From Candidatus Latescibacterota bacterium (GTDB lineage Bacteria; Latescibacterota; UBA2968), in NCBI GenBank assembly GCA_965204745.1, contig OZ242010.1, forward strand, positions 4,288,001 through 4,352,000: a DNA stretch of 64,000 bases, written 5' to 3'. A model generated the notes under the pieces. That model was given only the letters and a program-made list of their open reading frames with translations. It was not told the DNA's origin and ran no database searches. Within the stretch, counting starts at the first letter, position 1. Each line of letters begins with the position of its first letter. Below, piece by piece: positions 49,840 through 54,108 of this stretch. The position numbers and the translations under genes were made by a program.

Positions 49840-50940
49840 ATGTCGAGACTGAAGCATATCGAAATCAAGGGTTTCCGATCCATCAAAGAGATGGCACTAG
49901 AACTCCGACCACTCAACGTCTTGATCGGTGCTAACGGAGCAGGTAAGAGCAATCTCATTGCTTTTTTTAACTTGGTGAACGAATTGATGGGTGAACGGCT
50001 TCAGCAATATATTGGTGCGACGGGGCGGGCGACAGGCAATCTGTATTTTGGCCCCAAAATAACCCCTCAATTGGAAGCAAAAATGGCGTTTGAAGTCGAA
50101 AATGGAACGGACACCTACCAGATACTGCTGCGTCACGCTTCCGGTGATTCTCTGTTTTTCGCTGAAGAAATACTCTCTTATCAGACAATAGACTCTCCGA
50201 CACCAAAGGTCGTACCATTGGGGGGGGGTCATTGGGAAACGCGGATTAGAGCCACGGCAACAGGAGGCGAATCAGTGGCACAAGCGGTCTGGCATCTGCT
50301 GGGCTATTGCCGCGTCTATCACTTCCACGATACATCGCCGACTGCGAGAGTTCGGCAGTATTGTTACGTGGGTGACAACCGATGGCTTATGCCCGATGCG
50401 GCGAATCTGGCGGCGGTATTGTATGCGTTAAAGTCCAGCGAGGAAATAGCGTATCGCCGGATCGTGAGGACAATTCAACAGGTGGCACCGTTCTTTGAGG
50501 ATTTTGATCTCGAGCCGACCCATTCCAGAGACATCATTCTCAACTGGCGCCATCGCGAGTCCGACCTCATTTTTGGGCCCCATCAATTCTCAGACGGTAC
50601 CCTGTGGGCGATATGCCTGATTTCGCTGCTGTTGCTACCCGAAAAAAATCGTCTCAACCTGATTGTGGTGGATGAGCCGGAACTCGGATTACACCCCTAC
50701 GCGCTCCAAGTGATCGCTTCGCTGTTTCGCGCAGCAAGCCACCACACGCAGGTTCTCGTCAGCACGCAGTCCAGCGCGTTTCTCGATGCTTTTGAGATAG
50801 AGGATATCGTGATTGTCGAACGAAATAACGAGGCTACGGAGGTTCGCAGGCCGGATGCCGAAAAGCTCGACGCTTGGCTGGAAGACTATTCGGTCGGGGA
50901 AATTTGGGAAAAAAACATCATCGGTGGGGGGCCGCACTGA
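49840..50940 (+). CDS. ABC/AAA_21-type ATPase
   Basis: GANGAGKSN, FSDGT, DEPELGLHP, STQS. Confidence 0.92.
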   Translation: MSRLKHIEIKGFRSIKEMALELRPLNVLIGANGAGKSNLIAFFNLVNELMGERLQQYIGATGRATGNLYFGPKITPQLEAKMAFEVENGTDTYQILLRHASGDSLFFAEEILSYQTIDSPTPKVVPLGGGHWETRIRATATGGESVAQAVWHLLGYCRVYHFHDTSPTARVRQYCYVGDNRWLMPDAANLAAVLYALKSSEEIAYRRIVRTIQQVAPFFEDFDLEPTHSRDIILNWRHRESDLIFGPHQFSDGTLWAICLISLLLLPEKNRLNLIVVDEPELGLHPYALQVIASLFRAASHHTQVLVSTQSSAFLDAFEIEDIVIVERNNEATEVRRPDAEKLDAWLEDYSVGEIWEKNIIGGGPH

Positions 50941-52123
50941 TGGCTCGGCTCTATCTTTTTGCAGAAGGTTCAACGGAACAAACGTTTGCCAATACGGTCT
51001 TGAAACCGCATTTGGCAAATTTTGGAGTCTATATGCACAACCCGGTTTTGATTGCACACGCCCGAAAAAAGGGCAAAGTTCATCGCGGAGGTGGGAGAAA
51101 TTTCAGGGCGATGCAGAACGACATCAACCGCTTTCTCAATCAGGAGTCGGGGAATGACGTGTTTTTTACCACGATGATTGACCTTTACGCCCTCCATGCG
51201 AAATTCCCCGGCAGTGAAGAAGTTGAAAAACTGCGCCATGACCCGTATCAGCGCGTGGCTGCTCTCGAAAGGGTAAATAACTGTGCGGTAAAATCGTTGA
51301 CTATCGGATAGAATCGTTGACTATCGAAGAAGTTTGACAAAAATGAAACCTTTTGTCGGTTGTATCCGCCTAAGTCGTGTCAACAAAAGCAAGGCCATTT
51401 TTGTATTTGTTTGATTCCGCCGGTGGCAAAGCCTTGCTTTGTTGACAACCATCGGCGGTTTTTTTGGTGTTCTTGTTCTTTGACAAGTGAAGCGGGATAT
51501 GCGGTTGCTGGCGAAGGAACGCTTACGACGGCGATAACCAAGCGGTAAGCCTAAAATCTCCTGCCAGCGTAAAATCCACAGGAATAGATGGTTACAACCA
51601 ACTATCACTTGGGCGGCAAGCTCTGCCGAGCAAGTAAAAAACGGACGTGGAGGCGTTGTAAGACGGACAAGAGGCTGTAAGTGCTTGGACGCTGACCCGA
51701 TGAAGCGTCAACTTAATCGTATGCGATTGAGTCGATTTCATACGATTTGAGAGAGCGGCGTGGCTTAATGAGACCGGCGACTGCCGCTTCATCCCGTTTA
51801 TCCAGTTGCATGAATTTGAGGCTTATTTGTTTTGTGATGTATCCCAGTTCGCTTTCTTTTTTTCCAATGCAGATTCTCAAATCTCCGCTTTGCAGAGCAC
51901 CGAAAACATTCAGTACCCGGAACGCATTGACGACGGGCAACATACGGCGCCATCAAAGAGAATCATCGCCAAACTTCCCGAATATGAAGATTTGAAAACA
52001 ACAGTGGGACCACACGCGGCCGAACGGATTGGCTTGGAGAACATCCGATCCAAATGTCCCCACTTTAAGGCGTGGCTCGAGCGAATTGAGCGACTCGGAT
52101 CAGTCATGCCACAACGCTCCTGA
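50940..52123 (+). pseudogene. DUF4276 (TOPRIM-like) protein interrupted by a 485-bp insertion
   Basis: AEGSTE...TTMIDLY before the insert and IQLHEFEAYL...PSKRI...CPHF after it. Removing 51274-51758 restores a 699-bp ORF (LE-R-AWLNE). Confidence 0.9.
51274..51758 (+). mobile_element. Non-autonomous IS607-like element retaining a TnpB C-terminal tail / omegaRNA right end
   Basis: No TIR or TSD. GG shared at both junctions. Left-end direct repeats aatcgttgactatcg x2. Tail AASSAEQVKNGRGG..VR..PMKRQ. Terminal hairpin aatcgtatg..catacgatt and end gagagagcGG. Confidence 0.72.
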
Positions 52124-52204
52124 CAAAAGCGATAATACACCTAACGACAATGGTTGATCCCTAGACACATCCCTTAGTGTTTCCGATCTGCTTACACCAA
52201 GGGG

Positions 52205-53587
52205 ATGATAACGCAAAGGAATGGAAAGATGGCAAAACGACGCACGTCAAAACGAGAAGGCATCACGGCGATTTCCGTGCAGGACTTCAAGTCGCTTGAC
52301 CGAGAAAGTCGGATTGAGATTCGCCCGCTCACGATTTTGGCAGGAGCGAACAGTTCTGGCAAGTCGAGTATGATGCAACCCCTGTTGCTGATGAAGCAGA
52401 CGCTCGAAGCGAGTTATGATCCCGGCCCCCTTTTGCTGGATGGTCCAAATGCCAAATTTACGTCCGTTGACCAATTCATTTCGCATATTCAGAAAAACGC
52501 CCATCGTCAAGCATTTAGCGTCGAAATAGAACAGGCGAAAGATACGACGCTTAAAGTTGTGTTTTCTCTTATCGAGGAGCGCGTGCTTGAAATCACAGAT
52601 ATGGTCATAAAAGATAAAAAAGACGCACTTCCGATTCATTTGAGACCAAATCTAAGTTCAAAAAAGATAAAAAAGGCTTTCTCAACATGGTTTGCAAAAA
52701 AATTTGCAAAAAAAATAAAATGGCCTAAAGGATGGGAGTTTAAGGTTGTGAGAAATCGGTGTTTTCTCGAGGTCGTTATGGATATTGCATCAGTACCACG
52801 AGATGCAACCAATTTCTTTCGACTTCCTATATATGATCTACTCATACGTAGCATGCGTCATGCCACCGATAGATATGATCCACTCATACGTAGCATAATT
52901 CACGTCCCCGGATTGCGCGGCAATCCGGAGCGCGTTTACAAAACGACGGCGACAGGCCCTGATTTCCCCGGCACATTTGAAAATTATGTCGCGAGTGTTG
53001 TTGCACGCTGGCAAGCAGGAAATGACGCCCGTCTCAATCAGCTCGAGGAGATGCTTGTCGCCCTCGGCCTAACAGGGAAAATTGCCACAAAGGCTGTCGA
53101 TTACACACAAATTGAGTTGCAGGTTGGCAGACTTCCGCAACCAACATCGGCTGGCGATCTCGTGAATATCGCCGATGTTGGCTTTGGCGTGTCGCAAGTG
53201 TTGCCCGTGCTCGTCGCGCTTCTCATTGCCGGACCGGAGCAACTCGTGTATCTCGAGCAACCGGAACTGCATTTGCACCCGAAAGCGCAATATGCACTGG
53301 CGGAAATTTTGGCGGAAACAGCACGGCGCGGCGTAAGGTTGGTCGTGGAGACGCACAGCGCGTTGTTGTTGCTCATGGTGCAGACATTGGTGGCAGAGGG
53401 GAATCTCGATCCCGAGTTGGTGAAATTACATTGGTTTTCGCGTAGCGATGAGAACGGAATGACGTCAATTCAAAGTGCGGATTTGGATGAGAACGGCGCT
53501 TTTGGGGATTGGGCCGAGGATTTCGGCGATATCGAGTTGATGGCTGAAGGCGCGTATTTGGATGCCGTGGAAGGGCGGAGCAAATAA
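52205..53587 (+). CDS. ABC/AAA ATPase with DUF3696-like C-terminus
   Basis: GANSSGKSS, VGFGVSQVLP, EQPELHLHP, ETHS, DENG..GDW. Confidence 0.9.
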   Translation: MITQRNGKMAKRRTSKREGITAISVQDFKSLDRESRIEIRPLTILAGANSSGKSSMMQPLLLMKQTLEASYDPGPLLLDGPNAKFTSVDQFISHIQKNAHRQAFSVEIEQAKDTTLKVVFSLIEERVLEITDMVIKDKKDALPIHLRPNLSSKKIKKAFSTWFAKKFAKKIKWPKGWEFKVVRNRCFLEVVMDIASVPRDATNFFRLPIYDLLIRSMRHATDRYDPLIRSIIHVPGLRGNPERVYKTTATGPDFPGTFENYVASVVARWQAGNDARLNQLEEMLVALGLTGKIATKAVDYTQIELQVGRLPQPTSAGDLVNIADVGFGVSQVLPVLVALLIAGPEQLVYLEQPELHLHPKAQYALAEILAETARRGVRLVVETHSALLLLMVQTLVAEGNLDPELVKLHWFSRSDENGMTSIQSADLDENGAFGDWAEDFGDIELMAEGAYLDAVEGRSK

Positions 53588-54108
53588 TGGCAAAACGGCC
53601 TCGGCGATTGGTGATTGACGCAGATGTTGTACGGTCTGCCGGTGAATCGGAGAAACCGACTTCAAGTGCGTGTCGAAAGTTTTTGGAGGCGGTGTTGAAT
53701 GTGGGACATCGCGTTGTGATGACACAGGCGATACGAGAAGAATGGCATCGCCACATGTCCAAATATTCGCGCAAATGGCAAACGCGAATGTGGGGCCGCC
53801 GGCGCGTTGCTTCCATTGAGGGCGAACGCGATGAACAGTTGCGCGCAAGAATTGATGGGGTTGTAACGCGGGATCAAAAGGCGGTCGTTGCCAAAGATAT
53901 CCATCTCATTGAAGCGGCGGTTGCAACTGATCAACTGGTCACTTCACGGGATGAAAGCGCACGCAGGGCGTTTGGAGATGCGGCGGTTGCTGTGCGCGAA
54001 TTGCGACAAGTTGTGTGGGTCGATCCAACGCGAGATGACGAAAAGCCGATTGACTGGTTGCAAAATGGCGTGCAGGCCGAAGCGAGTCGGCGGTTAGGTG
54101 CTCGATAA
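53587..54108 (+). CDS. PIN-like domain protein
   Basis: LVIDADV...EEW...KDIHLIEAA..D..VTSRD acidic pattern; TAATG-coupled to the ATPase. Confidence 0.65.
   Translation: MAKRPRRLVIDADVVRSAGESEKPTSSACRKFLEAVLNVGHRVVMTQAIREEWHRHMSKYSRKWQTRMWGRRRVASIEGERDEQLRARIDGVVTRDQKAVVAKDIHLIEAAVATDQLVTSRDESARRAFGDAAVAVRELRQVVWVDPTRDDEKPIDWLQNGVQAEASRRLGAR

Follow-up and report, generated by a model that had tools for sequence, protein, structure and literature searches.

The window analysed here is a 64,000-nucleotide stretch from the genome of a Candidatus Latescibacterota bacterium (contig OZ242010.1, positions 4,288,001 to 4,352,000, forward strand), within which a gene of the DUF4276/HEC-01B type is split by an insert of 485 bp. 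Judged by its sequence, the insert is a protein-less, non-autonomous derivative of an IS607-family transposon. We consider it probable that it still possesses both of the ends recognised by the serine transposase TnpA, a GG crossover dinucleotide, and a complete gene for an omegaRNA (the guide RNA of the nuclease TnpB) with an extra 5′ module, and that it was inserted at AGGG, inactivating the DUF4276/HEC-01B gene.

Boundaries of the insert and its empty sites

The insert and the two parts of the gene that it separates are as follows (window positions, all on the + strand).

51274..51758, +: the 485-bp protein-less IS607-family element (TAAATAAC...GAGAGAGCGG; TAAAT...GAGCGG), missing from 4/4 same-genus orthologous loci and sharing its ends with 10 other copies in the genome
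50940..51272, +: N-terminal 111 codons of the DUF4276/HEC-01B gene, a predicted Toprim nuclease (PF14103 positions 1-79; PADLOC HEC-01B)
51758..52123, +: C-terminal 121 codons of the same gene (PF14103 positions 90-192, E 4e-29; PADLOC HEC-01B, 130 bits)

The open reading frame (ORF) of the DUF4276 protein begins at 50940 with MARLYLFAEGSTEQ... and reads to GAA AGG (51267-51272); its frame restarts at 51758 as GCG TGG (AWLNETGDCRFIPFIQLHEFEAY...), and its two halves score 97.5 and 130 bits, respectively, in PADLOC. Removing the 485 bp rejoins the reading frame, as the initial annotation had proposed. A GG dinucleotide is present at both junctions and in the target, and the start of the insert can be placed at 51272, 51273, or 51274; we use the published IS607 convention, in which the element covers 51274-51758 and is preceded by AGGG.

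Close relatives provide the empty site. With the left flank as query, the gene was recovered from same-genus genomes among the 40 relatives searched, and in 4/4 orthologous loci from that genus (L027-L030) the left and right flanks are contiguous, overlapping by GG. One of these alleles (genome G018, CTCGAAAGGGCGTGG) is exactly the window minus the 485-bp insert, while another (genome G016) reads GAAAAGGCGTGGCTTAATGAGACCGG at the empty site. The core DNA of the insert was not found in 39 of the 40 relatives, G016 alone giving weak matches. The repeat search reported no terminal inverted repeat in the insert and there is no duplication beyond the GG dinucleotide, so that empty sites and repeat search agree with what had been read from the junctions at the outset. 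An 8-nt repeat, GCGTGGCT (51253 and 51758), was considered as a target duplication and ruled out, being native gene sequence that is found in uninterrupted orthologues too.

On neither strand does the insert hold an ORF that reaches 100 aa (the longest, on the minus strand, has 95 aa), in keeping with the original description of an IS607-type element devoid of transposase and nuclease genes. The "decayed RLYP-like start" of that description is not confirmed as a remnant of tnpA: its only likeness is to ARLYSARS in the C-terminal part of one IS607 TnpA (tblastn E 0.09), the 10-nt identity is matched by 35 of 500 shuffles, and the resemblance is not significant.

The omegaRNA gene, its 5′ module and related copies

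From left to right, the element and its immediate flanks can be sub-divided as follows (copies M1, M2, M8, and B are introduced below).

51270..51273, +: AGGG, target and transposon-adjacent motif (TAM), the last GG being the crossover dinucleotide common to the right end (RGGG precedes 11/11 delimited family elements and the autonomous metagenome copies inspected; TGGG is the published motif for the TnpA and TnpB of one IS607 element)
51274..51330, +: left end with two 15-bp direct repeats AATCGTTGACTATCG (51292-51306 and 51312-51326), 20 bp apart, read from the sequence as presumed TnpA binding sites
51417..51466, +: strong hairpin CCGCCGGTGG..CCATCGGCGG followed by T7, terminator-like in the sense direction (from folding; kept in M1, M2, M8, and B)
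51495..51577, +: 83-nt structured 5′ RNA module of three nested helices, present in gene-less copies of this genome only (covariation; model R1)
51604..51711, +: omegaRNA scaffold core, homologous to tnpB 3′ ends (model R2, 56.8 bits, E 4e-12; BLAST to four resident tnpB 3′ ends)
51715..51747, +: terminal hairpin of the right end (AATCGTATG..CATACGATT), the last stem before the guide and a presumed TnpA site (51715-51730 is 81% complementary to 51732-51747; related right ends have equivalents)
51755..51758, +: GCGG right terminus, differing from the TAM at position -3, the published self/non-self discriminator (12/12 copies end in GCGG; the published scaffold end is UCGG)
51759..51778, +: predicted guide CGTGGCTTAATGAGACCGGC, which is flanking gene sequence (placed by homology with published IS607 omegaRNAs; its 12-, 16-, and 20-mers are single in the genome)

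The direct repeats and the terminal hairpin had both been noticed in the initial annotation and are located precisely here, as is the start of the predicted guide at 51759 (CGTGGCTTAATGAGAC...); the TAM, placed near AAGGG in that annotation, is the left flank, AGGG.

A BLAST search of the 5.48-Mb genome with the insert gave 19 matches, itself included, and the aligned matches fall into three groups: TnpB-bearing elements, gene-less copies, and three left-end-like fragments. The TnpB-bearing elements, 1368-1481 bp long, were delimited by BLAST and alignment and are listed here with the shortest gene-less copy.

Genome 4230002-4231482, -: TnpB-bearing element B
Genome 1802785-1804152: TnpB-bearing element C
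Genome 3902227-3903599: TnpB-bearing element D
Genome 5319893-5321260, -: TnpB-bearing element E
Genome 5275076-5275335 (L002 1501-1760): gene-less copy A, the right-hand 260 bp of the W subtype with the GAGCGG end and no left end, 98.5% identical to W

The eight gene-less copies are W (the insert itself, 485 bp), M1 and M2 (487 bp), M8 (505 bp), M5, M6, and M7 (340-341 bp), and A (260 bp). GAGCGG ends all copies, and the RGGG that precedes the delimited elements is AGGG in four and GGGG in seven of them. The subterminal repeats differ by subtype, namely AATCGTTGACTATCG in W, AAATCGCAAC in B, M1, M2, and M8, ATCGTAT in C, D, and E, and TTGGTCAAC or GATCAAC in M5 to M7.

The right half of the insert is, on the sequence comparisons that follow, the gene of a TnpB omegaRNA. 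At 77-80% identity, positions 51613-51711 correspond to the final 100 nt of the four resident tnpB genes; positions 51719-51759 match the DNA just past the stop codons of those genes. Translated, the scaffold reads AASSAEQVKNGRGGVVRRTRGCKCLDADPMKRQ against the C-terminus of TnpB (tblastn E 1e-10), which accounts for the TnpB-like tail remarked upon in the initial annotation. When metagenome contigs were scanned with a 26-letter scaffold motif as an exact pattern, at least 116 stretches were found, and all of the 80 that were fetched share one layout: a stem, AAACGGACGTGGAG, GTAAGAC, a variable hairpin, and GAAGCGTCAA. A covariance model (R2) built from 20 non-identical metagenome sequences lying at the end of a tnpB ORF matches the window once, over its full length, at 51604-51711 (56.8 bits, E 4e-12), and among the 150 of 1925 candidates in the genome that were scored it finds exactly the eight gene-less and the four TnpB-bearing copies. 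The expectation that the element kept an omegaRNA gene at its right end is thus borne out by R2. An Rfam scan of 51000-52100 at E up to 10 gave chance-level matches only (a plant small nucleolar RNA, a plastid untranslated region, and a microRNA), with no match to RAGATH-18, IS605-orfB, or the group I intron.

Structure is conserved along with sequence. The alignment of the eight gene-less copies supports 48 pairs, with 98.1% of cells paired compared with 29-41% when the partners are slid, and 14 of the 48 pairs are changed on both sides compared with 0-1 when slid; none of 500 shuffles reaches the observed values. Adding elements B to E and the closest relative outside this genome (L046, see below) gives a 13-sequence alignment in which 6/18 pairs are compensatory.

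In helices 1-3 of the 5′ module (51495-51577), 9/21 pairs are changed on both sides. Within the genome, where 150 of 469 candidates were scored, the module model R1 finds only the eight gene-less copies on which it was trained, and it has no match in 150 other genomes of the phylum, the L046 genome, or 84 fetched loci; an exact-pattern scan of the metagenomes for the module gave 0 matches. A loop motif, AACCAAG, was seen by eye in some metagenome mini-elements and is recorded as a lead only. Upstream of the module, positions 51370-51472 fold at -31.6 kcal/mol (z -2.64), and the hairpin with T7 at 51417-51466 looks like a terminator facing transcription of the host gene, though a simple terminator scan did not call it.

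One may go further, tentatively, and regard the gene-less copies as a guild of TnpB parasites, in which an omegaRNA core and a lineage-specific, covarying 83-nt module behind a built-in terminator have been joined to at least three sets of TnpA-binding ends, so riding different serine transposases and borrowing TnpB in trans to lock into host genes, a defence nuclease gene among them. This wider picture is possible, and we would bet against it rather than for it. If it were true, the 5′ module would stand in for a role of the tnpB mRNA (e.g., transcription start, processing, or stability).

Several of the other copies merit a remark. Copy A starts exactly at the 5′ RNA module and directly follows the stop codon of a co-oriented permease-like ORF of 803 codons; it is thus a guide RNA gene that has no transposon left end. 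Copies M5 to M7 (genome 3055908-3056247, 5434330-5434670, and 3848536-3848876) have spread recently, since they are ~98% identical to each other. In silico removal of copies other than W gave one plausible restored ORF and several apparent chance frames; the plausible case is M2 (genome 1355911-1356397), whose removal opens a frame of 538 codons on the strand of the element, the second half of which is doubtful, and M2 may therefore interrupt a gene too. Left-end-like family fragments adjoin further TnpB-domain matches at genome 4479821-4481042 and 2052601-2052901 (a 414-aa ORF and a 163-aa remnant), and are probably diverged or decayed relatives.

IS607 assignment, mobility and proposed mechanism

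In the published account of an IS607 system (bioRxiv 10.1101/2023.11.20.567912), TnpA_S integrates at TGGG, with GG alone strictly required, and TGGG is also the TAM of TnpB; the omegaRNA scaffold ends in UCGG, and the difference at position -3 spares the right end of the element itself. The family of the insert has the same arrangement, with an RGGG target and a GCGG terminus. Its 409-aa TnpB (P0001) has its closest relative in the genome collection in L046, from a Latescibacteria metagenome-assembled genome (71% identity, against 45% for the second-best). Immediately upstream of L046, MerR and Resolvase domains are encoded by ORFs in two different frames, and L046 has the same termini and AATCGTAT motifs as the family of the insert (left end CACGGG followed by GTTTTAACAGTTGCGTATAATCGTATAG, right end ...ACGATTTTAAGGAGCGG). 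Among metagenome loci with the same scaffold, 11/21 of those bearing TnpB also have a serine TnpA, and the autonomous copies inspected are flanked by GGGG or AGGG.

An IS607 element would be expected to have short repeated TnpA-binding motifs within ~40 bp of the left end and ~60 bp of the right end, and AATCG(T)/ACGATT repeats, present in both ends of the insert, are candidates for such motifs; AATCGT/ACGATT motifs recur in the left and right ends of copies C, D, and E and of L046.

An alternative on family is a palindrome-associated element of the IS200/IS605 group (PATE), moved as single-stranded DNA by a Y1 tyrosine transposase. The protein comparisons leave room for it, as the family TnpB resembles that of ISDra2 (E 4e-38) and scores as guided_TnpB without discriminating between IS200 and IS607 models; in NCBIfam, IS200_TnpB (236.6 bits) is slightly above IS607_TnpB (220.4 bits), both below their cut-offs. 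The scaffold core also occurs in metagenome elements ending in ..ATGTCAA, which we take to be ISDra2-like and which never have a serine TnpA, whereas the ..GAACGG class has one in 6/15 loci. Set against these points are the absence of any match to the Y1 transposase (PF01797, 0 matches) in the genome, the G-rich flank (RGGG) with GG common to both junctions, a right end of the ..CGG type, and the serine TnpA in the nearest TnpB relative and in 11 metagenome relatives. We assign the insert to IS607 rather than IS605 because there is no Y1, the RGGG/GCGG logic is as published, and L046 combines a MerR-resolvase tnpA with the same termini; the probability left for a PATE is negligible.

The genome does possess six resolvase-type (PF00239) tnpA genes, each beside a tnpB of 480-550 aa, in resident IS607 copies at the following places.

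Genome 210494: resident IS607 copy, serine tnpA and 480-550-aa tnpB
Genome 3134478: the same
Genome 2876228, -: the same
Genome 1989429, -: the same
Genome 4364223: the same, ~12 kb past the end of the window
Genome 4119935, -: the same

Their left flank is AGGAG in 5/6 and GGAGGTGC in the sixth, their right ends read ..GGTATCAG or ..CAACAGAAAGGTATCAG, and 3/6 of the tnpA genes have in-frame stops. AGGAG has been reported as the TAM of IS607 TnpBs of the RAGATH-18 type (PMC11061315); because of this and of their other termini, we take these six to be a different lineage from the insert. No cognate TnpA with matching ends was found in the genome, the six PF00239 loci all lying in elements with other ends, and the copy in the window is for that reason probably fixed at present. 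The search for an autonomous IS607 with the same ends, suggested when the insert was first described, therefore succeeded in part: there are four TnpB-bearing copies in the genome and, outside it, L046 with its tnpA, but no tnpA with those ends in the genome itself. Judging from the sequences, the resident TnpAs may cross-recognise the ends of the insert. The word GTTGACTAT is common to the left-end repeats of W and the left end of one resident IS607 copy, a lead only. By eye, the ends of M5 to M7 (..GGTCAACAATGATCAACAAGAAAGGAGCGG; left end with TTGGTCATTGTTG) resemble those of the resident autonomous IS607 copies, which might mobilise them.

Excision of the insert would be expected to leave the exact donor joint GAAAGGGCGTGGCTT. 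Each of four public runs has a contig piece that joins 51272/51273 to 51759-51761, with 1-3 other letters at the joint and single-nucleotide polymorphisms (SNPs) nearby. Because of these differing joint letters and nearby SNPs, the joined pieces are uninterrupted alleles of related strains and not excision products, and the excision-junction reads that had been hoped for are not among them. In the same runs, right ends like that of the insert run into other flanks (loose ends at 51758/51759 in X2, X6, and X11), which suggests that the W subtype occupies different sites in different strains. Run X1, which holds most of the stretch, has over window 50900-52150 both an insertion junction (a contig over 51232-51413, depth 90) and an uninterrupted, SNP-bearing allele (depth 58), so that this data set contains two related strains or alleles.

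These observations bear on the idea, put forward in the initial annotation, of a scarless on/off switch in which excision and re-insertion by TnpA toggle the HEC-01 system. Excision by IS607 TnpA is indeed scarless in published work and would restore the frame, and related strains do have the uninterrupted gene. Yet no TnpA with matching ends was found (the termini are different in the elements of the six resident tnpA genes, three of which have stops), the empty alleles in 4/4 runs are those of other strains, and a transposase does not of itself return an element to the site that it left. An active omegaRNA and TnpB would, moreover, oppose excision instead of allowing switching, so that the idea runs against the expected action of the omegaRNA, which by published accounts opposes loss of the element. 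We regard the switch as very improbable: the insert is not a demonstrated genetic switch, and regulation of HEC-01B is without support.

The mechanism that we favour is one of selfish retention. The ends of the insert would be recognised by a TnpA serine recombinase, with GG as the crossover dinucleotide; RNA would be transcribed through the right end into the flank and would load in trans onto a resident 409-aa TnpB. So loaded, TnpB would cut any vacated site of the form AGGG + CGTGGCTTAATGAGAC..., and repair from the sister chromosome would restore the element, as published for IS605 and IS607, without any part in host-gene regulation. The guide CGTGGCTTAATGAGACCGGC is single in the genome, where it is preceded by GCGG, which is not a TAM. 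The G016 allele may be uncleavable even though its target matches 20/20, because AAGG stands at the TAM position (by the published -3 rule). To move, the insert would depend on a TnpA like the one beside L046, the closest TnpB relative. TnpB itself is available in trans: the four resident 409-aa ORFs are without stops, and their GIDMG, VETLN, and (D/N)RDLNAA motifs align to the RuvC residues of ISDra2-like chains. In published experiments with an engineered mini-IS from which tnpA and tnpB had been left out, TnpA_S excised the element and TnpB drew its guide from it in trans, 40 bp of the left end and 60 bp of the right end being sufficient (bioRxiv 10.1101/2023.11.20.567912).

A number of points weigh against this mechanism and should be kept in mind. 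The training set of R2 was retrieved with a 26-nt family pattern, so that about 1/5 of the model is bound to match; one and the same alignment served to derive the structure and to count its pairs; and the eight gene-less copies amount to ~5 independent lineages (W and A being 98.5%, and M5 to M7 ~98%, identical). Gene-less and resident TnpB-bearing copies share only 77-80% identity in the scaffold, and cross-loading of TnpB is for this reason not assured. The 5′ module is without a counterpart in TnpB-bearing copies, and a promoter scan found no sigma-70-like promoter just upstream of the RNA.

One might therefore ask whether the insert is no more than an inert relic, that is, an internally deleted IS607 copy whose RNA is no longer made or bound by TnpB and which marks a dead defence gene. 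The lack of a cognate TnpA in the genome and of a promoter-like site before the RNA would fit such a relic, as would the W subtype having only one and a half genome copies (W and A). The compensatory changes between W and the other gene-less copies instead point to selection on the RNA structure during divergence, the 98.5% identity of W and A to a recent duplication; W-type right ends lead into different flanks in the contigs of other strains (X2, X6, and X11), and the four TnpB genes are intact. On this balance an inert relic is unlikely, and we retain the non-autonomous element with a complete omegaRNA gene as the preferred reading.

The host locus and comparison with known systems

The interrupted gene has an intact partner immediately upstream.

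49840..50940, +: HEC-01A-like AAA_21/AAA_15 ATPase gene, 366 aa, intact, upstream partner of the split gene (PADLOC HEC-01A, 447.9 bits, E 6e-135; Pfam AAA_21/AAA_15)

The HEC-01A ATPase gene and the HEC-01B (DUF4276) gene are adjacent, as expected of HEC-01, a candidate defence system. DUF4276 is described as a nuclease domain of the Toprim superfamily (PMC12065111), and a figure legend in PMC11464382 names it among the effectors of AAA15/21 ATPase systems. With its HEC-01B Toprim gene interrupted, this strain has simply lost a candidate defence gene.

Immediately downstream of the split gene (window 52205-54108) is another candidate defence pair. Its first gene encodes an AAA_21/AAA_15 ATPase of 460 aa that matches DUF3696 weakly and below threshold, is NsnB-like in PADLOC (183 bits), and matches HEC-03B too; it overlaps the gene for a 173-aa protein with a sub-threshold match to PIN_3 (24.2 bits, cut-off 27). 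The region around the split HEC-01B gene looks like a defence island.

As to novelty, gene-less elements that bear omegaRNAs are already published for IS605, as are the IS607 mechanism and an engineered mini-IS; Meers et al. (PMC10055086) state that PATEs "often encode" omegaRNAs that a TnpB elsewhere must use in trans. A full-text literature search, with supplements and subscription journals outside its scope, turned up no description of natural gene-less IS607 elements with omegaRNAs. Guide-only elements may even be the majority form, since 34/55 metagenome loci with the same scaffold and at least 1200 nt upstream (loci L134-L213 fetched) are without a TnpB match; among the 15 loci with an IS607-like ..GAACGG end, a TnpB match is absent in six. 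Some of the TnpB-less metagenome loci have, by eye, left ends of GGGG followed by TAACTAACAGTT, like the family of the insert, and promoter-like TGGTAAAGT or TGGTATAGT boxes.

The insert is a natural, well-delimited case for the use of gene-less omegaRNAs by TnpB in trans in an IS607 setting, with its empty site documented in close relatives. Its interest lies mainly in the structured 5′ extension, which only gene-less copies bear, and in its being a clean natural test case.

Comparison with ISDra2 TnpB-omegaRNA (PDB 8exa, 8bf8, and 8h1j) shows the family TnpB to align over residues 9-386 (E 4e-38) with the RuvC motifs kept. A further likeness to the ISDra2 type is the scaffold core AAACGGACGTGGAG..GTAAGAC..GAAGCGTCAA, found also in the ..ATGTCAA-ending elements. 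ISDra2 has an IS605 context and a TTGAT TAM, whereas the context of the insert is IS607.

PATEs, as described in PMC10055086, resemble the insert in that they are without coding capacity, often encode omegaRNAs used in trans, and outnumber autonomous copies. They differ in being moved by Y1 as single-stranded DNA and in their hairpin ends and TA-rich TAMs, compared with the IS607-type ends and G-rich TAM of the insert. The RAGATH-18-derived right-element RNAs (reRNAs), such as that of ISFba1 (PMC11061315), likewise combine an IS607 TnpB guide RNA with a G-rich TAM and a scaffold of ~190 nt; the TAM reported there is AGGAG or GAGGG, in contrast to that of the insert, which has no RAGATH-18 match at E up to 10.

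One of the best parallels is the Clostridium botulinum IStron (IS607 TnpB/omegaRNA; bioRxiv 10.1101/2023.11.20.567912), as there described, which shares the serine-recombinase logic, the GG crossover, an xGGG target that equals the TAM, an xCGG scaffold end, the -3 discriminator, and a scarless donor joint. Unlike that system, the insert is natural and without tnpA, tnpB, and a group I intron; its TAM is RGGG instead of TGGG, and it possesses in addition the 83-nt 5′ module and the terminator-like hairpin.

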